Assembly: GCA_964402215.1 (NCBI GenBank)
Contig: CAYOAT010000001.1
Location: 70,703-134,702 of the forward strand
DNA length: 64,000 bases
Source of the DNA: an uncultured Candidatus Saccharibacteria bacterium
Lineage (GTDB): Bacteria; Patescibacteriota; Minisyncoccia; Phycocordibacterales; JAACPR01
Direction: 5' to 3'
The position numbers and the translations under genes were made by a program. Positions within the stretch are counted from its first letter, which is position 1; the number at the start of each line of letters is the position of its first letter. The notes beneath the pieces are model-generated. The model was given only the letters and a program-made list of their open reading frames with translations, ran no database searches and was not told the origin of the DNA. Of this stretch, positions 38,848-50,900 are shown piece by piece.

Positions 38848-39243
38848 TTAACGGTTTTGTTTGTCTAAATAATCCTGCAAAATAATCGCTGCGGCAGAAG
38901 CATCAATTTTTTCTGTCTTTCCGCTAACATTTCTGGCTTCCATACTAGTAAGATATTCGGGATTTAAATATACATCGATTTCCAGTTCTGTTTCTAAAAC
39001 TTTTTTTAAATCAATTATTTCTGTCATTATTTCATTGTCCTCCATCTTGTAATTTTTTGACTCTCCGATAATGATTTTATTTATCGAGTTTTCGACGATA
39101 ATCTTTTTTAGATTTTCCAGCATTTTATGATCGTTTTCTAAAATACTTTTTGGAAAAGCAATTTTTCCATTATCATCAGATATTGCGATACCAATTCTTT
39201 TTGTCCCGTAATCTATACCAATATATTTCATAGAATGTATCAT
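38848..39243 (-). CDS. ruvX: Holliday-junction resolvase-like RuvX/YqgF
   Basis: MKYIGIDYGTKRIGIAISD RNase-H-like N-terminus (likely true start at this internal Met). Confidence 0.85.
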   Translation of the reverse strand: MIHSMKYIGIDYGTKRIGIAISDDNGKIAFPKSILENDHKMLENLKKIIVENSINKIIIGESKNYKMEDNEIMTEIIDLKKVLETELEIDVYLNPEYLTSMEARNVSGKTEKIDASAAAIILQDYLDKQNR

Positions 39244-39282
39244 TGCAAAACAAACGTTTTTTGGCTAGTATTCATTGTTATT

Positions 39283-39373
39283 GGAGAGATGGCAGAGTGG
39301 TTGAATGCACCGGTCTTGAAAACCGGAATACTCGAAAGGGTATCGTGAGTTCGAATCTCACTCTCTCCGCCAA
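39283..39373 (+). tRNA. tRNA-Ser (anticodon TGA), encoded CCA
   Basis: acceptor GGAGAGA/TCTCTCC, anticodon stem CCGGT/ACCGG with loop CTTGAAA, long variable arm, T-loop TTCGAAT. Confidence 0.9.
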
Positions 39374-39514
39374 GTCGTGACGGGTTATTTCTGCACGAGA
39401 CACGTCGATACTGTTTATACACAGTGGTTGAAATTTTTATCAAAAGCCTATTCAAAAATTAGTATCACTGAATTTATTTTATTTTGTTTTTTATACCCCC
39501 CCGTCATCATAATT

Positions 39515-40234
39515 TTATTTCTTATCCTCTAGGTATGATTCCATCATAAATCTTATTGTATTATTTATTTTTCCTACGATTTTTACTATATCATTTAAAT
39601 AGTTTTCAGATTTTATTTTCAATAATTTATCGGTGTAGGAACTAACTGCACCATCGCAATAATAAAATCTTGTTGTAGAAACATTATCACCTAAGGAATA
39701 GTAGGCTTTTTGGTTGTAATTGTTCTTAGGCGAATCAAAAAAAGTATTTATAAAACCAGATCTTATTTCCTTTAGAGATTGATCGTAGTGGAAGGTCACA
39801 TTACTTCTAATCCTTGATATATGAGACAAAAAATCATTTTTATTTTCATCATACAAAACATCTAAAACATCATGCCAATCATTTCTTATATCTGATGGTA
39901 ATTTTTTTTCAAAAAGAATAAACGATATTGAGCTAGTAACCTTTTTATTCTTTTCAAGAAAAATAAATAATTCACTAGTCAAACTGATAATTAATCTATT
40001 TAAATGATTATTAAGACCGGCCCAAGAGCCAAGATGGTCATTTGGTGGTTCACTATTATCAGAATTCGGTTTTCTATATTCCTTTACTATATATTCAACA
40101 AAAAACAACAAATCTTTCAAATCATTAAAAATCAAACCCAATACCAAAAAGAAATTATCAAAATCACTATCCTTATCCTTCTGTATAATTTTAGATGGAT
40201 TGATACTTTTTAAATTTCCCTCAAATTCTTTCAT
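39515..40234 (-). CDS. hypothetical protein (possible HEPN-like Rx5H motif, unverified)
   Basis: 239 aa, no TM; RIRSNVTFH resembles an Rx4-6H motif; directly downstream of the UvrD-like helicase. Confidence 0.45.
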   Translation of the reverse strand: MKEFEGNLKSINPSKIIQKDKDSDFDNFFLVLGLIFNDLKDLLFFVEYIVKEYRKPNSDNSEPPNDHLGSWAGLNNHLNRLIISLTSELFIFLEKNKKVTSSISFILFEKKLPSDIRNDWHDVLDVLYDENKNDFLSHISRIRSNVTFHYDQSLKEIRSGFINTFFDSPKNNYNQKAYYSLGDNVSTTRFYYCDGAVSSYTDKLLKIKSENYLNDIVKIVGKINNTIRFMMESYLEDKK

Positions 40235-40304
40235 TATTTTTCATTAATATTTTATTAACACATTTTGAATTTGCTCCTCAAGATTTTTTTGCATGACGAT
40301 GAAA

Positions 40305-42218
40305 CTAATTTTGGTCAACCTGTTTTATCGGAATTTTGGAATCTCTAAGAAATCTGGTCAATGTTCTTTTTTCTGTTCCACTATTACTTCCCGAATGTCT
40401 TTGTTGTCCAATTCGTTTATTGCAATAGCTGATAAACAATTTATGTCTTGCTCTTGTCATGGAAACATACAACAACCGTCTTTCATCGCCCTCTTTATCT
40501 CCAGTATTTCGTCCTGGAATATACTCATCTTCTGCACCAACTATGAAGCACACATCAAAAGACAAACCTTTTGCTTGGTGCATAGTGAGTATATTAACAG
40601 CATTTTCTTTTGTTTCTTGTTCGATATATTCTGACGAAGTGCTTACTATTTTAATTAAACCTTCGAGATCAGCTTTTTCTTGACTCTCCAAAATGCCAAC
40701 AAAATATTTTTTTACTTGTTCCCTGATCTCTCCTTCACTCATAAATTTATCGACTGTCGCAGTTATCGCTTCAATAGGATTTTGGATTGCTTTGAGTTCC
40801 ACTATTGCCACATTTATTTCGGAAACAAATTTTGCTATTTTTTGTCCAAACTTTTGTAATTCATTCGGAGATTCAACTATTTTTTGTAGAGCCACGCTAA
40901 ATCTTATTCCCCTGCTTTGAGCGTAATTCCATATATTTTTTATAGACTCATCACCCAAGCCGTTTGTTTTATCGACTTGTAATAATGTTCGCCAAGCTAA
41001 ACAATCGTTTTGATCAACTAGCAAACGAATAATTGATAAAACAATTCTATACTCATTATTGCTTTCTAGCTCGGAATCAGTCGTCAAAGACACATCAACG
41101 CTTTGCTTTTTCAGGGCTTCAATAATTGGCTTAGACAATGAGCCATTACGGTCGCTTCTTAATAAAATTGTGATTTGATCTGGCTTAATATCTTTGGCAA
41201 TCAAGCTTTTTATTTTTTTAGCTATGATTTCAGCTTCATGGTTTTGATCTTTAAATCCAATTATCAAAACCTCACCGTCTTCCGATTGGTCTTTCGGGCG
41301 TGTTGGCTTCGGTAATCGTTTAGGATCGAGACTGGCAACAAATTCAGCTGAATGTAAAATGTTTTTATCACAACGAAAACATATTTCTAACGCCAATTTT
41401 TTGGAATCTTGATATATCTGTTCAAAATTTCTTATACCTTCGGGGGTTGCGAAACGGAAGCCGTAGATACTTTGGTCATCATCTCCCGCAACAAATAATT
41501 CCGCACCTCGTTTTGCTAACTCGTTGACTATCGCAAGGTCGCAAGCGTTTAGGTCTTGATATTCATCAATCAAGATATGCTTATATTCTTTGTCCAATTG
41601 GAAATCTCTGCTTTGGTTTAACTGCTTTTTCAGTTGATAAACAAGTTCTGCTCTCAATGTTTCGCCATATTGATCTTTGTGGCTTCGCCACGCACCAAGA
41701 AAGGAGGGGTTTGGAAATTGTTGCTCCCAGCCAATTTCATCAATTCTCAAAGTTTCCCAGTCAGTTGAAAGCTGGTTGATCAAGTTTTGGACATCGCCAA
41801 TTTCTTTGAGGCTTAGAACTTTTTTTAAATCCTCTTGGATAATATATCTTTCTTCCCAGTCATCGGCTATTCTGATTGGTCTTGGCAATGTATCAATTCT
41901 GCTTGAATTATGAAGAATTTGTCTCAACGCAAAGGAGTGAAGCGTTGATACTTGAGGAATTGTTTTTCCTAAAGGTTCTAAAACTTTCTTGATTTCATCT
42001 TTCAGTTGAGCGGCGGCTAAACGGGTAAATGTAAGCAAAAGAATTGATTCTGGGTCAACATTATGTTGGAGAATTAAAGAAAGTACACGCCGAGTAAGCG
42101 TTTTTGTTTTACCCGTTCCTGGTCCAGCAAGTAATCTTGCATGACTGCCAATGTGGTCAATCGCTTCGATTTGATCGCTTGTAGCGTCGCCGTGAATTGT
42201 TGTTTTTATATCGTCCAT
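40305..42218 (-). CDS. UvrD/Rep/PcrA-family SF1 DNA helicase
   Basis: Walker A AGPGTGKTKT, motif II ILIDEYQDLN, GDDDQSIYGFR, C-terminal QAKGLSFDVCFIVG and VSMTRAR. Confidence 0.9.
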   Translation of the reverse strand: MDDIKTTIHGDATSDQIEAIDHIGSHARLLAGPGTGKTKTLTRRVLSLILQHNVDPESILLLTFTRLAAAQLKDEIKKVLEPLGKTIPQVSTLHSFALRQILHNSSRIDTLPRPIRIADDWEERYIIQEDLKKVLSLKEIGDVQNLINQLSTDWETLRIDEIGWEQQFPNPSFLGAWRSHKDQYGETLRAELVYQLKKQLNQSRDFQLDKEYKHILIDEYQDLNACDLAIVNELAKRGAELFVAGDDDQSIYGFRFATPEGIRNFEQIYQDSKKLALEICFRCDKNILHSAEFVASLDPKRLPKPTRPKDQSEDGEVLIIGFKDQNHEAEIIAKKIKSLIAKDIKPDQITILLRSDRNGSLSKPIIEALKKQSVDVSLTTDSELESNNEYRIVLSIIRLLVDQNDCLAWRTLLQVDKTNGLGDESIKNIWNYAQSRGIRFSVALQKIVESPNELQKFGQKIAKFVSEINVAIVELKAIQNPIEAITATVDKFMSEGEIREQVKKYFVGILESQEKADLEGLIKIVSTSSEYIEQETKENAVNILTMHQAKGLSFDVCFIVGAEDEYIPGRNTGDKEGDERRLLYVSMTRARHKLFISYCNKRIGQQRHSGSNSGTEKRTLTRFLRDSKIPIKQVDQN

Positions 42219-42334
42219 ATATTTATATTATACCATATTTAAGCACAAAAAGCCATAAGCAATGAGCTAAAATGTGCTTATTATTAGCCACGTAATTGGC
42301 TTTATTTGTTATACTTGACAAAAGTTGTTTTTAT

Positions 42335-43708
42335 TTAAGATTTCAACGAAATCTTCTTATCACTCAACATAATCTCACTCTTAAAACACCCTAGTAATTC
42401 CCTCTTTTCCAAGGCGGAGCCGTCTCTCAAAATGTATTTAGCATAATTTCTGATATCGATATCGCTAACAATAATTTTTTCTTTCGTTCCTAAAATTATC
42501 TGTTGAAACTTTTTAAATTTCTCAACGTCAGTTTTGATTTTTTCTTTGATCTTAATTTCACTAATATCAATTTGATCTAGTAATTCTTCAAATTGAACAA
42601 TTAGATCTTTTTCTTCAATATAGCCACACGGACAGTTTTTATCTTTATTCTTGGTACATCCATAATAAACGTAGCGATGAACATTTCCATTTTTCTGTCT
42701 TTTAAATTTTTCATCTGCTGATATACCAGATCCACACAATCCGCAATACATTAGTTTAGTGAAAGCGAATTCTTTATTTTCAATTCTTATAAAACTACTC
42801 TTGATCTGACTCTGTACCAAATCAAATAATTCTTTAGTGATAATTGGTTCGTGTTTTCCTTTGTACCAGTTTCCGCTTTTCTTTGGATATTCAAATTCAC
42901 CATAATAAAAATGGTTGTTGAGGATTGTAAAAATATTACCGAGACTAATATGTTTCTTGCCACAAACGGTTCTAAAGTTTAATTCAAATTTCAACCAGTT
43001 GTATATTTTCTTTCCGCTCCAATGTTCGTGTGCAACTTTCTCAAACATTTTTTTAATAGTTGGTGCTCTTTCTGAATCAATATAACACTGACATTTTCTA
43101 TCTGTCCTTTTTTCTTTCAAATAACCAGTCGGTGCAGGACCTGGCCACAAACCCATCTCAACTCTGGTGCGAAGTCCCCTTTTAACGTTGATACTTTTGT
43201 TGTCATTTTCTAATTTAGCTTGGGAACACAAAATCATTAATAGAAATTTTTCATTCGGTGAATTCTTAAAAGTCTGACCATAAGTTCTGATCTCTTGAAG
43301 CTTTGACTCATCCATCAAATCAACTAGCGACCCCAAGTCTCCTGCATTTCTAGATAATCTATCTGGTGCCCAGGTTAATATGCCATTAAAACGTCCAGAA
43401 TCGATATCAGACAGTATTTCCTTGAAGACTGGTCTCTGACCGGAATCTTTAGCTGAATGTGCCTCACGTCTTATTTCAACGATTTCCAGACTCTCTCTTT
43501 CAGCTATTTGCAACATCTCTTTAACTTGTGAATCAATTGATAATATTTGCCGTTCTTCAGCTTCAGTTGATTTACGAGCGTATAGAACATACTTAACTGG
43601 AACAGCTTGAACGACCTTCATATCACCAATTAATCCAACATTTGTCTTTGTCTCCATACAACCATTAATGACAGAACCGTTGGTTTTGCTAAGCGAAGTT
43701 GTCGACAA
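42335..43708 (-). CDS. large serine recombinase (resolvase domain + recombinase domain + zinc ribbon)
   Basis: catalytic YARKSTEAEE (Ser) N-terminal domain, recombinase domain, Cys4 ribbon CGLCG...CPCG; start probably at an internal Met. Confidence 0.9.
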   Translation of the reverse strand: MSTTSLSKTNGSVINGCMETKTNVGLIGDMKVVQAVPVKYVLYARKSTEAEERQILSIDSQVKEMLQIAERESLEIVEIRREAHSAKDSGQRPVFKEILSDIDSGRFNGILTWAPDRLSRNAGDLGSLVDLMDESKLQEIRTYGQTFKNSPNEKFLLMILCSQAKLENDNKSINVKRGLRTRVEMGLWPGPAPTGYLKEKRTDRKCQCYIDSERAPTIKKMFEKVAHEHWSGKKIYNWLKFELNFRTVCGKKHISLGNIFTILNNHFYYGEFEYPKKSGNWYKGKHEPIITKELFDLVQSQIKSSFIRIENKEFAFTKLMYCGLCGSGISADEKFKRQKNGNVHRYVYYGCTKNKDKNCPCGYIEEKDLIVQFEELLDQIDISEIKIKEKIKTDVEKFKKFQQIILGTKEKIIVSDIDIRNYAKYILRDGSALEKRELLGCFKSEIMLSDKKISLKS

Positions 43709-43763
43709 CGTGTTGGCAAGAATTCTTAGCGAAACAATAAAATCGCGATATTATACTAAACAC

Positions 43764-44972
43764 ATGGAAATATTAATTTTTGGCGGAATAGCTGTCTTTA
43801 TGATAATAGGATTTATCTCTTGGATAATGGAGATAAATGAAAATTCAAAAAAATATTTGGATTTAAAACCAAAACTAGATTCTCTAGAAAAAGATCGCCA
43901 AGATCATCTAACGAAAGTTAAAAAATTAGAGGAAACAACTGAAATAGTTAAAAGAGATTTACATAAAATTGCTGAACAAAAATCAATGGGTTTTCCTTGG
44001 TTGGCAGAAGCTTACGCAGAATATTTTTCTTTACGTGATTTAATGGTAGAAAAATATTTGGAAAACAAAAGACATCCGGCATATACAGCCGCAGAAGCAG
44101 TAAGAGAAATTAAAAAAGAGAAAAAGAAACTCCTAAAAGAAAATAAAATTATTTCTTATAAGATAAATTATTTTGAGAAGTTATTCCCATGGCTGAGTGA
44201 ACTTATAGCGGAAAATGAGCAGGAAGATATACCAGTAATGATAGACGACGATCAAATCGAAGATAATGATGACAGAGTTAAAAATTATTTAACACAAGAT
44301 GAATATAGAAAGTTGCCATCAGTAGAAAGAAATCAAAAAGCGCTGGACAGATATTTACAAAATAGAAATAAATCCAAATGGGCTATTGGTAGAGATTATG
44401 AAATGTACGTGGGACATCTTTATGCACAGGATGGTTACATTATTGAATATAAAGGAATAATTGATGGTTTTGATGATTTGGGCAGGGATATAATTGCAAA
44501 GAAAAATGGTGAGATCTGCATAATTCAATGTAAATATTGGGCGCAATATAAAGATATTCATGAAAAACACGTATTTCAATTATTCGGAACCACAATGGAA
44601 TATTGGCTGAAAAATTTTGTTAGTAAGGGCACTAAAAATAATTTTTCTGAGTTTTCAAGATTTTTGGATGAAGAAAAAATTAGACCAATATTTTTTACTT
44701 CCACAACATTATCAGAAAGAGCTAAGGAAATGGCGAAAGCCTTAAGCGTTGAGGTTATCGAAAGTAAACCAATTTCTGATTTTCCAAGAATTAAGTGTAA
44801 TATCAATGTCGATGAATTTGGAAAAGAAACAAAAATTTATCACCTACCGATGGATCAACAATATGACCGTACAATTATAGGAAATAAAAAGGGTGAATTC
44901 TATGCTTATACAGTTAAAGAAGCTGAGGGCGCTGGATTTAGAAGGGCTTTTAAACACAAGTTTAGTAAATAA
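43764..44972 (+). CDS. membrane-anchored coiled-coil protein with C-terminal Mrr-like (PD-(D/E)xK) restriction endonuclease domain
   Basis: N-terminal TM, long charged coiled coil, Mrr_cat-like core GFDDLGRDIIAKKNGEICIIQCKYW and C-terminal YHLPMDQQYDRT...AGFRRA; start set at the internal Met that avoids overlap with the recombinase. Confidence 0.7.
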   Translation: MEILIFGGIAVFMIIGFISWIMEINENSKKYLDLKPKLDSLEKDRQDHLTKVKKLEETTEIVKRDLHKIAEQKSMGFPWLAEAYAEYFSLRDLMVEKYLENKRHPAYTAAEAVREIKKEKKKLLKENKIISYKINYFEKLFPWLSELIAENEQEDIPVMIDDDQIEDNDDRVKNYLTQDEYRKLPSVERNQKALDRYLQNRNKSKWAIGRDYEMYVGHLYAQDGYIIEYKGIIDGFDDLGRDIIAKKNGEICIIQCKYWAQYKDIHEKHVFQLFGTTMEYWLKNFVSKGTKNNFSEFSRFLDEEKIRPIFFTSTTLSERAKEMAKALSVEVIESKPISDFPRIKCNINVDEFGKETKIYHLPMDQQYDRTIIGNKKGEFYAYTVKEAEGAGFRRAFKHKFSK

Positions 44973-45142
44973 TTTAGTAATATTCCGTCGACGAAATTTC
45001 GACAGTTTCGTTTAATAAAAATTATTCCAAATATAACGATCTCTTGAGACAAGTTAAAGATTTACTATCAGAAAAAGGAATCAAAGATATTAGTCTACTA
45101 GACGTTCACTCCTTCGTCTGGATGATCTATAATTTTAGGTAA

Positions 45143-45592
45143 TTAACGGTTGTCTGATTCAGAAGGTTTTTCTTCAACCCATCCCTCAAGGGAATTGCCA
45201 CCATTTTTTTCAATCTCTTCATCTCTCTCAACATCCTCTTTTCGGCTGTATATTTTAACTTCTATAGCATCAATTTTTTCCTTCCCCATATCTTCCCAGA
45301 AATTCTTTGGTCTCGGTCTCATATATTCTTTTTTATGATTATCAAGCCAATATCTATATGCTCTGGGTTTTCCGATTTTTATATCCGTGATTAACTTACT
45401 TTCTGCCAGATCATTTATGGATTCCACTCCGAGTTTTTTGGCCTCATCTACATTTTTAGAAAATCTTTTCTCATTTTCCATCCATCTATAAACAGTCTGT
45501 CTTGATAAACCAACACGTTCACAGGCCACAGAAATGTTCGCTGTTTTTGCCAATTCTTCTATGAATGTTTTTTCTAATGACTTCTTCTTCAT
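45143..45592 (-). CDS. HTH protein resembling phage terminase small subunit / transposase-type HTH
   Basis: N-terminal HTH ISVACERVGLSRQTVYRWM; translationally coupled to upstream ParB-MTase gene. Confidence 0.5.
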   Translation of the reverse strand: MKKKSLEKTFIEELAKTANISVACERVGLSRQTVYRWMENEKRFSKNVDEAKKLGVESINDLAESKLITDIKIGKPRAYRYWLDNHKKEYMRPRPKNFWEDMGKEKIDAIEVKIYSRKEDVERDEEIEKNGGNSLEGWVEEKPSESDNR

Positions 45593-46863
45593 ATACTTTC
45601 AACCTTGGCTTTCTGACCCGTTAATTTTTCATATCTTGCAATAATGAGATCACAATATATTGGTTCTAGCTCGACCAAATAAGCTTTTCTTTTTAGTTTT
45701 TCACAAGCAATCAATAGACTTCCAGATCCACCAAAAGAATCTAGAATAATATCACCAGGTTTAGTACATCGCCTTATCGCTTTTTCGTATAGATCAACAG
45801 GTTTCTGGGTGGCATGTTCCATTTCCTTTCCAGAAACTCTTTTCGAAGTCCAAATATTTATATCATCGATAGCTTTGTTTCCACTTCCAACATTTACATT
45901 CATGATTTCATTCTGGCCAAATTCTTTTTTCGATAAATAAGGCTTTCCGAGAGTTCCATAAATACATGGTTCATAACATTTTGAGAAAGCCACTTGAGGT
46001 GTTTCATTTTGTGCGTTTTTTATCCATAAACAGACTCGGCGATTTGTAATACCAAGTTCTCGGTAAAGAGACTGTATGATCCAAATCTGTTGTTCTGTAT
46101 TCCAATAAAATATATGGCTATCTGGCTTAGTGAACAATAGAGCAGTTGAGATATTTTTTCTCAAAAATTCTATGTATTCTTTTTCGGTTCTATCGTCATT
46201 AACATTTCCTCCGTAATCTTTCTTCCCGCCGACTCCTTTATTGTATTTAATCTTTAAATTGTAGATTGGGTCAGAAAATATAGTATCCGCTTTTTCATAA
46301 CCAAATAATCTACTCAGTGTTTTTTCTTCATTTGAGCTTCCACAGATCAGGCGGTGGTCACCCAAAGTTACCAGATCTCCAATTTTAGTTTTAGGAACTT
46401 TGATTTTAGCTAATTCTTTTTTCTCGTCCCAATCATCCGTTGAGACACTAATGTCGCCATCCCAGATATTAGCAATATCGTCGAAACTAAAGCCTGAGTC
46501 AGTTAACAAACCAATCTCGAAGTCTTTCAAGGATTCATAATTCCAATCTCCAGTGACAGCATTTGATGTTAGAAGATATCTCTCATATTCTTCTTTAGTT
46601 AGTCTTCGGTTTGGTATTCTGACATCTATCTCTTCATCACCACGACCAAGAATTTGCATCACTTTTAATCTTTGGTGGCCAGCAATTATTTTATTGTCAG
46701 TATCTATTGCAGGGATTTCAACTAAATTAAATCTTTCTAAACTTTTCTTTAAATTTGATTCCTGGTCTGCAGACATCACCCGAGGGTTTTTATTGTATGG
46801 GACCAAATCATTTACTTTGCGCCTGGTCGTGCGCCACATGAGAGGTTCGTTATTGTTTATCAT
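45589..46863 (-). CDS. ParB-like nuclease domain fused to N4/N6 DNA methyltransferase
   Basis: ParB/Srx N-terminus (IIAGHQRLKV), MTase motif IV SDPIYN and motif I LDSFGGSGS. Confidence 0.85.
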   Translation of the reverse strand: MINNNEPLMWRTTRRKVNDLVPYNKNPRVMSADQESNLKKSLERFNLVEIPAIDTDNKIIAGHQRLKVMQILGRGDEEIDVRIPNRRLTKEEYERYLLTSNAVTGDWNYESLKDFEIGLLTDSGFSFDDIANIWDGDISVSTDDWDEKKELAKIKVPKTKIGDLVTLGDHRLICGSSNEEKTLSRLFGYEKADTIFSDPIYNLKIKYNKGVGGKKDYGGNVNDDRTEKEYIEFLRKNISTALLFTKPDSHIFYWNTEQQIWIIQSLYRELGITNRRVCLWIKNAQNETPQVAFSKCYEPCIYGTLGKPYLSKKEFGQNEIMNVNVGSGNKAIDDINIWTSKRVSGKEMEHATQKPVDLYEKAIRRCTKPGDIILDSFGGSGSLLIACEKLKRKAYLVELEPIYCDLIIARYEKLTGQKAKVESI

Positions 46864-46963
46864 AATTATTAAATCCTTTTTATTTCAGTGGATTTGATAA
46901 TTATGATAACTTTTCGGTTGATTCTATGTAACCGATTTTTGACCCCTTTTAAGCGTCCCACAC

Positions 46964-47689
46964 TTATCTGGCCCGTCTCTTGTTTCTATATATAGTTTTT
47001 GATATTTTTCTTGGTGTATAGATATCTGTATCATGTGCATCATTTAGTTTTTTAGAAATTTCAGACGGGCGATAGGTCTTACTTAAATGATAAATTTGTT
47101 TATTTAAATTACTTTGCTCTCTCAATCTAACCTGTTGTAAGTGTGGCGATATCTTTTTATATCTATTTTGAATTATCTTAATCTTACTAAAATTTTTACC
47201 AACATATTCTTCTATATCTCTCCTTGATGCATCTACGCTAACTAATATCGCCACAGGAAAACCAAAATTCTCAACAAAATCATTATTTTTGATTTTCTTT
47301 TTCGCCTGAACCATGTCGATAGAAATAACAGTGTTGATATCGCTTGTAATTATGTATGTGTTGTAAAACAAAATCCAATTAAAAACATTTGGATATGTAT
47401 TCAAAAGACTAATATTATATTTATCTAATAACTCGGAGATTTGATTTTGTAAATCAATTAAATACTTTTGTCTAATACCTTTTAACCACACCTTCGGATA
47501 TTTAAATGAGTTATAACCCAACGTCTCATATCCCATTGGTTTATCGGCAAAACCATTTAGCGGAATTTTAAATTTGCTTCTAAGTAGTCCTAGATCTTTT
47601 TGAAAACCCGATCTTTTTCTTAACCGCTCTAACACTTCAAACAAATGATCTTGCGATTTTGTAAAAATAGAGTGAAATTTCTTGGGCAT
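46964..47689 (-). CDS. hypothetical protein
   Basis: 241 aa, basic C-terminus, no recognisable motif. Confidence 0.4.
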   Translation of the reverse strand: MPKKFHSIFTKSQDHLFEVLERLRKRSGFQKDLGLLRSKFKIPLNGFADKPMGYETLGYNSFKYPKVWLKGIRQKYLIDLQNQISELLDKYNISLLNTYPNVFNWILFYNTYIITSDINTVISIDMVQAKKKIKNNDFVENFGFPVAILVSVDASRRDIEEYVGKNFSKIKIIQNRYKKISPHLQQVRLREQSNLNKQIYHLSKTYRPSEISKKLNDAHDTDIYTPRKISKTIYRNKRRAR

Positions 47690-47891
47690 ATTAGAGTAAT
47701 TATTATACTTTTTCGGATATAATCAAATAAGAATAAATAGACAGAATGCTAATAGTTAAATTTGACAATAAAATTATTTCATAGTCTAAAACGGTCATTT
47801 AATCAGCGCTTACATTTACGGGTCTATAATAAACATAGTGTGTAGCAGGGATAGTCGACCCATTAAAAGACTACACATTCAATAGATAATA

Positions 47892-48176
47892 ATGAGTAAA
47901 TTTATTTCCAGAGTAGAGCTAAATAATGCTACTTTAAATGAGTTTTCTTTGTTTCATGATACGATGTCTGATCTTGGTTTTTCACAAGAACTTCCAATTG
48001 AAAATGGCGATATATACAGATTACCTAGGGCAACCTATCGTATTGTGAAAGATGTTGTTATACGAGATATTTTAAATCTTATTAAACAAGCATTGAAAAC
48101 AATTAATAAAACCGCCGAAATCTTTGTTGTAAAGTACACGGATTCAGATTGGGACGGGCTAGATTTAAAGGAATAG
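47892..48176 (+). CDS. hypothetical small protein
   Basis: 94 aa ORF with plausible spacing from a divergent promoter region. Confidence 0.35.
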   Translation: MSKFISRVELNNATLNEFSLFHDTMSDLGFSQELPIENGDIYRLPRATYRIVKDVVIRDILNLIKQALKTINKTAEIFVVKYTDSDWDGLDLKE

Positions 48177-48296
48177 GTTAAATTGAGCAAAAACGGACTA
48201 ATATAACGCGCTAGATTGGTGGAGAAATTCAGTATACTGTCAAAAATCAGAGTTGTAACCTATGACCAGCGGTAGAACGGCCGTACCTAGCTTATA

Positions 48297-48327
48297 AAAA
48301 CCAGATTCAATTCGAATCTGGTTTTTA
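48297..48327. terminator. bidirectional hairpin terminator
   Basis: AAAAACCAGATTC-aa-TTCGAATCTGGTTTTT. Confidence 0.55.
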
Positions 48328-48365
48328 ATTACTTTTTTGCAATAGAAAAAGTGACAAAAGTGTCA

Positions 48366-48480
48366 CTTTTGTCACTTTTTGCCCTGCTCGAGACTCGTCG
48401 ATTTGGTATACTTAAAAAATCTTAAATAAGCATTACGGGGCTTAACCGATAAAAGTTCTAACACGAGACGGCCCGCCAAG
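48366..48480 (+). repeat. copy A of ~115-bp repeat ending in a tRNA-Ser 3'-end-like sequence (att-like)
   Basis: aligns along its length with 50787..50900 (shared cttttgNcactttttgccNtgctcgagactcgtcgattt ... cattacNgg ... gttctaac.cgag ... ccgccaag); last 10 nt cgccaagtcg equal tRNA-Ser 3' end plus flank. Confidence 0.7.
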
Positions 48481-48534
48481 TCGAGCTAGCACGAGGAACG
48501 TTAAGTATTTAAAATTTTACAATTAAAAGATAAA

Positions 48535-49866
48535 TTAAAACATCAACCATCCTGGCTTAAAGATGATTAAAATTCCAATTATTAACATAATTAATCCACC
48601 AATTAATCTTGAGGCACGAGCATATTTTGTTGTAATCCCTGTCATTTCCAACGTGACCATCGCCACAAAAAAGATAAACAAGTCATCGAGCATAAAAATT
48701 AAAATATAAAGTGAGATATACAAATAATATTGCCAAGTTGGTATCTGATTTAGGGCGAGTAGTTGAGTATAGACTGCGGGTAAACCGGCGGAACAAAGGA
48801 TTTCAACTAAATTGACTGCTGCCGCTAATAAAATAATTCCACCTAAAGCTAGCCACAAACTATTTTGATCAACAACAAGTCTCATCTTCTCAAAAACCTT
48901 TTTTCTTTTCTCGTCACCCGCTACTTTACATCCGCCATCTCTATTAAAAATAAATTCTTTGAGACTATAGCCACCGCCCAAAATCGCGATAATACCTATT
49001 AACATTCTAACCCAAATGACAAATCCTAAAAATAAAATTAGATTCAACCACGCAGACATAAACAAAAAATAAACTAGGGCTGATGACACAATAAAAACAG
49101 AACCCAATAACCACATCCTTTTTCTGTTTTTAATCCCAAGCAATAAACTAATAAGGAACAAGAGGGTCCACATTGCACACGGATTAAAGCCGTCCAAGGC
49201 CCCCATAATTATGGTCACCAAAGGTAGCGAAAAATCCGCCAAACTGATTTCTCCTAATAATGGAATATTGATTTTATTGTCTTGATTCGTTTTTGATTCT
49301 GGAACAGAATTATCAACAACATTATTTTCTTCATGCTCAATGACAGAAGTGGCGGTTTCTAAATTTTCAATAGAAGTATCTAAATCTGGATCAGAATTCG
49401 GCATCACTACATCATCAGAGATTACCAAATTAACAAGGCTGGGTTTCAAACCAACAATATTCGCAACTTGATCTGTACATTTACCCTTCAGACATTCTTC
49501 AAGTTTTTCTTCTATCTCCAAAGAAGTGATTCCACCGGCATAACCAACAAAAGCACTATCACCGATAACCAAAAACGGCACGCCACTAATATCAATATTT
49601 AATGTGCTGGCAACTTCCTTTAAAAGAGATAAATTGTTGTAATTATAATAAATTTCATATTCATAAATATTTAGATTTGGATATTTTTTATTTAAGGACT
49701 CATAAATATATTGCCTTTCTTGCGCACAATGAGGACACCCATCGCCATAAAAAAAATAAAGGTTTATAAAATTTTGAGATTGTGCATAAACATTTGATAA
49801 AAGGAAAAAAAATAAAATCACCGAGAAAACAATGCCAAGAACAAATTTTTTATAAAGAGTCAACAT
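48535..49866 (-). CDS. thioredoxin-fold domain fused to CcdA/DsbD-type transmembrane thiol-disulfide transporter
   Basis: signal/TM, CPHC active site in the N-terminal domain, TM domain with DGFNPCA and LCSAGLP cysteines. Confidence 0.7.
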   Translation of the reverse strand: MLTLYKKFVLGIVFSVILFFFLLSNVYAQSQNFINLYFFYGDGCPHCAQERQYIYESLNKKYPNLNIYEYEIYYNYNNLSLLKEVASTLNIDISGVPFLVIGDSAFVGYAGGITSLEIEEKLEECLKGKCTDQVANIVGLKPSLVNLVISDDVVMPNSDPDLDTSIENLETATSVIEHEENNVVDNSVPESKTNQDNKINIPLLGEISLADFSLPLVTIIMGALDGFNPCAMWTLLFLISLLLGIKNRKRMWLLGSVFIVSSALVYFLFMSAWLNLILFLGFVIWVRMLIGIIAILGGGYSLKEFIFNRDGGCKVAGDEKRKKVFEKMRLVVDQNSLWLALGGIILLAAAVNLVEILCSAGLPAVYTQLLALNQIPTWQYYLYISLYILIFMLDDLFIFFVAMVTLEMTGITTKYARASRLIGGLIMLIIGILIIFKPGWLMF

Positions 49867-50786: not shown

Positions 50787-50900
50787 CTTTTGCCACTTTT
50801 TGCCATGCTCGAGACTCGTCGATTTTGAAAACCAAAATATGCTAAAATAACATTACAGGACCTGGCCGAGAAAGGTTCTAACTCGAGGCTCTCCGCCAAG
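50787..50900 (+). repeat. copy B of ~115-bp repeat; contains degenerate tRNA-Ser-like anticodon-arm and 3'-end sequences
   Basis: aligns with 48366..48480; ends ctctccgccaag, identical to the last 12 nt of tRNA-Ser incl. first C of CCA context; also contains ttgaaaacc like the tRNA-Ser anticodon arm. Confidence 0.7.

Follow-up and report, generated by a model that had tools for sequence, protein, structure and literature searches.

Do a helicase gene and the small gene that follows it in a mobile island make up one defence system, or have two independent genes come to lie side by side? The question arises from a stretch of 64,000 nucleotides (nt) of an uncultured Candidatus Saccharibacteria bacterium, a member of the Patescibacteria or candidate phyla radiation (CPR) (assembly GCA_964402215.1, contig CAYOAT010000001.1, positions 70,703 to 134,702 of the forward strand). 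This whole stretch is referred to below as the window. Next to a tRNA-Ser gene, a UvrD-family helicase of 637 amino acids (aa; 40305..42218, minus strand) is followed by a protein of 239 aa (39515..40234, minus strand), which we call the partner. The original prediction, made from the letters of the DNA, took the two for a candidate helicase-plus-effector defence module, with service of the helicase in replication of the island as the alternative. Its description of the genes was exact: a 637-aa UvrD/PcrA-type helicase with a full motif set lies beside a recombinase, and the 239-aa open reading frame (ORF) follows on the same strand after a 70-nt spacer. Its interpretation of them has to be revised. 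Helicase and partner are probably independent accessory defence genes that were stacked in one element of ~9.1 kb, and not a dedicated pair.

Conservation of the gene pair

The locus consists of three minus-strand genes in close succession, with 116 nt separating the large serine recombinase (42335..43708) from the helicase and 70 nt separating the helicase from the partner. No terminator-like site was found on the minus strand between the latter two, and their co-transcription in this genome is therefore plausible. Both genes are under purifying selection, with ratios of non-synonymous to synonymous substitution (dN/dS) of 0.04-0.13 (helicase) and 0.09 (partner).

To see how often the two genes occur together, 80 fetched loci (given by their handles, L002 and so on, where they must be told apart) were scanned in six frames with a hidden Markov model of the partner family and the helicase sequence. 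A partner homolog was present in 60 of the loci and a UvrD-like gene in 21, while both were found in only one, L080, which belongs to another assembly from the lineage of the window itself. Among the 46 non-redundant partner loci, 33 have at least 2 kb of upstream sequence and still lack a UvrD-like ORF, and the eight distinct helicase contexts with at least 0.8 kb of downstream sequence hold no partner homolog. In these loci the pair is absent outside its own lineage, and the 239-aa gene is therefore not conserved beside the helicase, an outcome which the original prediction had itself named as refuting it. Of the proposed defence module in a mobile island, the island and the defence-type neighbourhoods stand, and the paired module, seen in one locus of 80, does not. 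The base composition of the two genes also differs, with a GC content of 26.5% in the partner and 37% in the helicase (34% in the window), and this contrast of 10 points is consistent with separate acquisitions. Elsewhere, each family occurs alone, mostly as the tightly spaced last gene of a restriction-modification (RM) operon or after a nuclease-helicase gene.

The helicase as a single-gene cassette

The helicase belongs to superfamily 1A (SF1A) and has no extra domains. It matches the Pfam families UvrD-helicase (PF00580, E=3.7e-49) and UvrD_C (PF13361, E=6.7e-42), and a motif scan found motifs I, Ia, II, III, V and VI all intact (Walker A GPGTGKT at 32, TFT at 63, DEYQD at 218, GDDDQSIYGFR at 245, HQAKGLSF at 547 and VSMTRA at 585). 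The best solved relatives in the PDB are UvrD1, UvrD, PcrA and Rep, with E-values from 1e-35 to 1e-47. Against the NCBIfam equivalog models, the helicase scores 255.9 bits for PcrA (cut-off 911.2), 215.7 for UvrD (cut-off 1144.45) and 217.7 for Rep (cut-off 951.45); with such scores for PcrA and UvrD, a clustering with the chromosomal orthologues of these proteins, which would have counted against the original prediction, was not borne out. GajB profiles of PADLOC match it with E=1.1e-59 to 1e-22, these models being generic for UvrD-like helicases. From phage and plasmid collections, tblastn returned only Rhodococcus plasmid genes of 30% identity.

Near-identical copies are widely scattered. 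Proteins 90-98% identical to the helicase are encoded in assemblies labelled Bacteroidota/Draconibacterium, Saccharibacteria, Daviesbacteria, Nomurabacteria, Falkowbacteria and Bdellovibrionales, and the isolate Desulfurella amilsii encodes one of 93% identity. At the DNA level, identity to these other loci is 76-97%, synonymous divergence (dS) among copies is 0.1-0.9, and homology begins and ends within ~10 nt of the ends of the ORF. Since the DNA homology stops at these ends, the unit of transfer is the helicase gene itself, a single-gene cassette. The helicase is thus a separate, highly mobile gene and a newcomer to this element. A 'UvrD subfamily helicase' has also been listed among the genes predicted to be donated by aquifer Patescibacteria to other bacteria (PMC12455944).

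The contexts of the helicase were taken from 11 fetched genome loci and five further look-ups, and they tie this highly mobile clade to RM operons. It is usually the final gene of a Type I, II, IIG or III RM operon: it stands last after HsdS in L012/L017, after HsdR and an HsdM-S fusion in L078 (where a T5orf172 gene is also present), and after two D12 methylases and AlwI in L013/L019/L024, and it follows a PLD-SNF2 protein and a Type IIG methylase in L074/L075 and Type III Mod/Res in L076/L077. The order in L023 (Desulfurella amilsii) is tRNA, T5orf172, helicase and a helix-turn-helix (HTH)-methylase-DpnII RM system. In a single case, L015, the helicase lies directly between nitroreductase and trigger-factor genes, downstream of NusA and H+-pyrophosphatase. 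The genes 3' of the helicase vary by locus or are absent, with no downstream partner gene in L015, L023, L024 and L078. It is overlapped by a downstream PDDEXK_1 nuclease gene in L074/L075 (7001-11043), followed by a trypsin-like protease and a DUF1232 protein; a 961-aa AAA_23/SMC-like ATPase lies downstream in L076/L077 (7001-11809), and a 360-aa protein with no assigned function does so in L014. The arrangements in L074/L075 and L076/L077 may be larger composite defence operons.

Many of the other loci share a conserved GC-rich element of ~60-130 nt (GGATAGAAATTTTAAATAGTCCCGCCGAAAAGTTTTGGGGGCGAAGCCC...) 3' of the helicase stop codon, as in L012 (3031-3060), L018 (1108-1180), L019 (8909-9010), L023 (11909-12040) and L016 (1740-1860). 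The window does not have this element, and the last three codons of its helicase differ too. An Rfam scan of the GC-rich element and of the island gave only tRNAs above threshold.

The partner family and its neighbours

Searches of Pfam, NCBIfam and PHROGs with the partner gave no match, and PADLOC gave a match of 14 bits only; phage and plasmid collections gave none by tblastn. The family itself is large. A word-indexed search found 41 homologous clusters, and an exhaustive profile search brought this to 985 representatives at 50% identity, 839 of them at E<=1e-10. The few members that come with a source name are all from Patescibacteria/Parcubacteria (CPR). Domain fusions were seen only in P0282 (381 aa) and P0285 (342 aa), which carry N-terminal extensions of 110-150 residues, that of P0282 matching DUF5681.

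Six homologs and 48 metagenomic loci were fetched for their genomic contexts, and upstream neighbours were judged by Pfam scans together with pre-computed annotations. A single-linkage clustering of the neighbours by BLAST merged the C5 methylase with SLFN-g3 helicases, and that cluster was not used for counting. A co-directional gene lies within 150 nt upstream of the partner in 29 of the 46 non-redundant loci, and RM or nuclease-helicase neighbours are found at ~20 of the 46. The partner follows HsdR after a gap of 8 nt in L007, a Type I RM system and an AAA_15/21 ATPase in L005/L006, a MutH-like nuclease and a C5 methylase in L002, a D12 methylase and AlwI in L040, and an MmeI-type enzyme in L055. 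ResIII-type proteins precede it, eight in total, as do GIY-YIG/SLFN-g3 helicases in L037, L059 and (by clustering) L038. Its neighbours also include nucleases (Vsr, MTES_1575 and DUF559) and, occasionally, unrelated genes such as those of SHMT or a tyrosine integrase. An anti-restriction role was considered and rejected, as the partner shares operons with host RM genes, from which only 8-15 nt separate it.

In the GIY-YIG/SLFN-g3 proteins just 5' of partner homologs, a GIY-YIG nuclease is fused to an SLFN-g3 (DUF2075) helicase (L037 3919-5958, L038 1237-3291, L059 982-2583), and the protein of L037 has a C-terminal S24 peptidase domain as well. This recurring nuclease-helicase and partner arrangement uses a helicase family unlike that of the window.

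The genes of the window's element return in several of the partner loci. Homologs of its recombinase (E=1e-180 to 1e-198) adjoin the partner or lie within 4 kb of it in L009, L028, L040 and L073, a protein resembling the HTH small terminase subunit (terS-like) of the island co-occurs with partner homologs in L009, L047, L053, L062 and L073, and homologs of its ParB-methylase (E=1e-114 to 1e-169) adjoin partner homologs in L047, L053, L062 and L073. Gene order and orientation vary among these loci. The partner is thus frequent and habitual cargo of this element family, which the helicase is not, and in the broader picture it accompanies RM and nuclease genes as a satellite.

A candidate HEPN-type RNase

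What might the partner do? The original prediction pointed to a possible HEPN-like Rx5H in it, and this turned out to be a real feature of the family. The motif, RSNVTFH, corresponds to R143-x5-H149, and both residues are invariant in 36 of 36 close and 66 of 66 diverse homologs, with the five-residue spacing kept in 65 of the 66. Because of this invariance, it is not a chance feature. Directly after R, 35 of the diverse homologs have N, 13 have S, 7 have H, and 5 each have G and D. Moreover, N37 and W120 are invariant in the 66 members, and D38, K40, E88, Y150, R189 and D194 are nearly so.

An AlphaFold2 (AF2) model built from the 36-sequence alignment predicts an all-alpha protein, with a predicted local distance difference test score (pLDDT) of 91.7 and a predicted template modelling score (pTM) of 0.86. 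It would place R143 at the C-terminal end of helix 132-147 and H149 in the loop before the next helix (154-167). E88, conserved in 64 of 66 members, would lie within the second long helix (66-95), and three short helices appear to be inserted at residues 97-128 between helices 2 and 3. The criteria published for HEPN proteins include Rx4-6H with a polar residue (N, D or H) following R, the position of this motif at a helix end and the following loop, as in the partner model, an acidic residue in helix 2 which is typically within Ex3[K/R], and a variable insert between helices 2 and 3 (PMC3710099). RM linkage is among the commonest HEPN contexts (PMC3710099). The partner agrees with this description qualitatively in its Rx5H and polar residue, helix-end motif, helix-2 acid (not in the Ex3[K/R] form), insert between helices 2 and 3, and RM contexts.

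A further mark of the HEPN superfamily is a four-helix up-down core that resembles known HEPN domains in profile or fold. Similarity searches lend the membership of the partner no statistical support. In a Pfam scan of every member of two family alignments at E up to 10, no family recurs, and a profile search with the partner alignment against PDB sequences gave spurious CapZ matches only. The integron-cassette HEPN protein 3jrt has the top query-normalised TM-score in both Foldseek runs against the PDB and the top target-normalised one in the full-length run. Its query- and target-normalised scores are 0.33 and 0.44 for the full-length model and 0.48 and 0.45 for the truncated core, at non-significant E-values of 1.8 and 6.3 (core 6.3), and the resemblance of the predicted fold is a hint only. 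AbiV and a HEPN-MNT complex also recur among the top non-significant Foldseek matches. Profile searches, the kind of check for which the original prediction asked, gave no significant match to a HEPN-type family (Pfam, PDB, hhalign). As a significant profile or fold match is absent, HEPN membership is not demonstrated, and we treat the partner as HEPN-like as a working hypothesis.

The integrated element

The most fitting reading of the block that holds both genes is a small integrated element, or the remnant of a prophage, that carries defence cargo. It spans ~39378 to 48483 (~9.1 kb) in its Patescibacteria (CPR) host, starting at the 3' end of tRNA-Ser(UGA) (39283..39372, plus strand; ARAGORN; Rfam tRNA 64.8 bits). 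A 71-aa ORF at 39240-39455 (minus strand) is an artefact that overlaps this tRNA. The candidate boundaries are two copies of an 11-nt direct repeat, CCGCCAAGTCG, on the plus strand. The left copy (39367..39377) consists of the last 6 nt of the tRNA and the next 5 nt, and the right copy lies at 48473..48483; exactly these 2 copies occur in the window, with 0.00 expected by chance. A 19-nt motif, CTGCWCGAGACWCGTCGAT, has 3 copies in the window (39391..39409 and 48384..48402, both plus strand, and 50805..50823), with 0.01 expected by chance. Together, the 19-nt and 11-nt repeats bracket the block from the partner to a GhoS-like ORF. From a serine recombinase one would not expect long direct repeats. 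Copies 2 and 3 of CTGCWCGAGACWCGTCGAT lie within a 64-nt repeat, and the repeats also bracket a second block of ~2.4 kb with a 443-aa ORF, thioredoxin and DUF134. Beyond the island, the genes are ordinary ones: thioredoxin, DUF134, VKOR, tRNA-Arg and RuvA.

Besides the partner and the helicase, the block holds the recombinase, an Mrr-like protein, the terS-like HTH protein, the ParB-methylase and two small ORFs of unassigned function. The recombinase has the Pfam domains Resolvase, Recombinase and Zn_ribbon_recom and matches the integrase family phrog_95 (E=5e-61); translation probably starts at a later ATG, as in the 440-aa call of L080. Divergent from it, with a 40-nt overlap, is the gene of a 434-aa protein (43668..44972, plus strand) in which a restriction endonuclease domain resembling Mrr_cat_2 is combined with a 'sunset' domain at the C-terminus (Pfam E=4.2e-5; NCBIfam NF051437 E=6.3e-6, just under the cut-off). 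The terS-like HTH protein (149 aa; 45143..45592, minus strand) matches Sf6_terminase (E=2.7e-6) and PHROG terS families, and library matches identify the next protein (424 aa; 45589..46863, minus strand) as a fusion of a ParB-like N-terminal domain with an N6/N4 DNA methyltransferase. A 241-aa ORF (46964..47689, minus strand) has neither a family nor a PDB match and no function is assigned to it. The last ORF of the island (94 aa; 47892..48176, plus strand) is weakly GhoS-like; with 20.3 bits it falls just short of the Pfam cut-off of 21 (GhoS, E=5.4e-4). GhoS is a type V antitoxin endoribonuclease, and no GhoT-like partner was noticed beside this ORF. Searches of the island ORFs against Pfam, NCBIfam and PHROGs gave no Rep or relaxase family, with the ORFs at 46964-47689 and 48535-49866 carrying no annotation.

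Alternative explanations

Several points weigh against taking helicase and partner for independent additions to one element. Here, both genes point the same way across a terminator-free gap of 70 nt, and there may be a functional coupling specific to this lineage. Short metagenomic contigs make up many of the loci compared, and binning errors may lie behind the phylum labels of contigs from metagenome-assembled genomes; the Desulfurella isolate is the only firm cross-phylum case of the helicase. The same tight arrangement would suit a genuine two-gene defence system confined to this lineage, with the helicase as sensor or motor and the partner as an interchangeable effector. It would agree with this that the helicase clade sometimes has a different, tightly coupled downstream gene (L074/L075, L076/L077, L014), and that the partner often follows a gene of the helicase or translocase type (HsdR, ResIII protein, SLFN-g3 helicase). 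We nevertheless regard such a system as unlikely: the combination occurs in none of the other 59 partner loci or 20 UvrD-like loci, the helicase stands without any downstream partner in L015, L023, L024 and L078, the partner also follows non-helicases (C5 methylase, AlwI, SHMT, integrase), and the two genes differ in GC content by 10 points. UvrD/PcrA helicases are used in rolling-circle replication, and the position of this one directly downstream of a recombinase inside a mobile island would fit a PcrA-like role in replication or transfer of the element, with the partner as unrelated cargo. This alternative of the original prediction is very improbable and was rejected. Rep, relaxase or an origin-like feature went undetected among the island ORFs (two of them without annotation), the helicase is mostly terminal in RM operons, copies of 81-98% identity lie at the ends of such operons and between nitroreductase and trigger-factor genes where there is no element, and the element relatives in L009, L028, L040, L053 and L073 have no helicase. 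That it is simply the housekeeping UvrD/PcrA of this genome, as its best PDB matches could suggest, is hardly credible and is ruled out by equivalog scores far under the cut-offs; its 93% identity to the Desulfurella gene, DNA homology confined to the ORF and variable contexts, mostly RM operons, argue in the same direction.

The nature of the partner is less settled. That it is a latent HEPN-type RNase, a back-up layer of abortive infection for when restriction is evaded, is a reading by analogy to which we give even chances. A number of results speak against it: HEPN_Apea matches weakly in 1 of 36 homologs (E=0.006) and in none of 66 diverse members, with no Pfam match for the window protein; one RiboL-PSP HEPN sequence (from L002), compared with the family profile by hhalign, gave a probability of 0.2%; Foldseek E-values are at least 0.5 throughout (full-length model against PDB and BFVD, truncated core against PDB); the residue at +4 of E88 is F, so that the Ex3[KR] form is absent; and the neighbourhoods of the partner yielded no conserved antitoxin or regulator. 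It could instead have a new all-alpha fold which is not HEPN, and act as a DNA nuclease, an enzyme directed at NTP or NAD, or a regulatory or sensor subunit riding on RM systems. A high-confidence AF2 model that nonetheless has no significant PDB or BFVD match, the want of any profile match, and the position of the invariant N37, W120, R189 and D194 and of a ~70-residue C-terminal extension outside the minimal HEPN core would all be in keeping with such a fold. What makes us see it as a possibility of the lesser sort is the invariant R-x5-H with a polar residue after R, the fit of its helix-end and loop-start position, of the helix-2 acid and of the RM-linked context to the published HEPN criteria, and the recurrence of 3jrt, AbiV and the HEPN-MNT complex among the top non-significant fold matches.

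Comparison with known systems

Among described systems, the partner comes closest to the RM-linked HEPN proteins (PrrC/EcoprrI, Abi2/Swt1, DUF4145, RiboL-PSP clades, AbiV; PMC3710099). Like them, it is small and alpha-helical with an invariant Rx4-6H and polar residue, has the motif at a helix end and loop start with a conserved acid in the preceding long helix, and is found as a satellite of diverse RM operons and also on mobile elements. Unlike them, it resembles no described HEPN family detectably in profile or significantly in fold, has neither an MNT nor another antitoxin as a neighbour, and carries an extra C-terminal hairpin and two helices with the invariant R189 and D194; the named members of its family are all Patescibacteria/CPR. 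PrrC and RloC differ further, as the partner (239 aa, all-alpha) has no N-terminal ABC-ATPase domain or P-loop. Vpc_cass2 (PDB 3jrt), an integron-cassette HEPN protein, is mobile-element cargo as the partner is and has the top query-normalised TM-score, but it matches the partner with E-values of 1.8 and 6.3, a root mean square deviation of 6.4-14.7 A and an identity of 18-19%.

For the helicase, the comparison closest at hand is Gabija (GajA and GajB), since its family (UvrD) and its defence-type surroundings agree and it matches the PADLOC GajB model with a best E-value of 1.1e-59. However, GajA, an OLD-family ATPase-TOPRIM nuclease, is not adjacent here (PADLOC) nor in the related helicase loci examined, where the neighbouring genes are RM genes. 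The Gabija-like architecture suggested by the original prediction was therefore rejected: GajA is absent, and the neighbours are a serine recombinase and a 239-aa all-alpha protein. With UvrD, PcrA and Rep, the helicase shares domain architecture and full motif set, its nearest solved relatives being UvrD1, UvrD and PcrA. It differs from PcrA and UvrD in being ~90 aa shorter than either, and from all three in its horizontal mobility as a single gene and its attachment to RM operons.

The element resembles serine-recombinase islands and prophage remnants (CcrB/XisF-like, phrog_95) in the Resolvase, Recombinase and Zn-ribbon domains of its recombinase, its place next to a tRNA, its defence cargo, and the terS-like and ParB-methylase genes that are typical of phage-derived elements. 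It departs from them in having the recombinase mid-island and not at an end, an 11-nt boundary direct repeat which is more typical of tyrosine-integrase islands, and no structural phage genes.

A possible mode of action and its implications

How the two genes might contribute to immunity can be sketched in outline. The partner would be a latent, metal-independent RNase of the HEPN type, in which R143 and H149 would make up the active site with help from N37, D38, K40 and E88. Once first-line restriction of DNA fails, it would step in as a second-line effector of abortive infection, by analogy with PrrC, which is held by EcoprrI, and with many RM-linked HEPN clades. The helicase, more speculatively, could be a 3'-5' SF1A motor on DNA ends or nicks made by restriction, either processing the invader's DNA or sensing DNA ends as GajB does, and would not require the 239-aa protein for this.

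A wider proposal may be put forward, although we regard it as rather doubtful. The 239-aa protein would found an undescribed family of defence effectors, with ~1000 clusters at 50% identity, named members only from Patescibacteria and a fold that nothing in the PDB or BFVD matches significantly. Its members and the single-gene helicase would be interchangeable add-ons that RM operons of any type can take up at their 3' end as a second layer of immunity, and the near-identical copies across phyla would reflect a recent community-wide sweep.

What, then, does the locus mean? A two-gene system is not upheld, and cloning effort aimed at the pair is spared. The locus is ordinary defence-island cargo beside an integrase, with two moderately interesting components. 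One is a family of 985 clusters in genome-reduced CPR bacteria, associated with RM genes and matched by nothing in the profile libraries, for which R143 and H149 are a candidate active site. The other is a UvrD-family helicase that is found as a single-gene cassette at the ends of four types of RM operon, which is of interest for the spread of defence genes through groundwater and sediment communities. RM systems are considered the main defence of CPR bacteria, and satellite genes riding on RM operons may form a large part of their remaining immunity.

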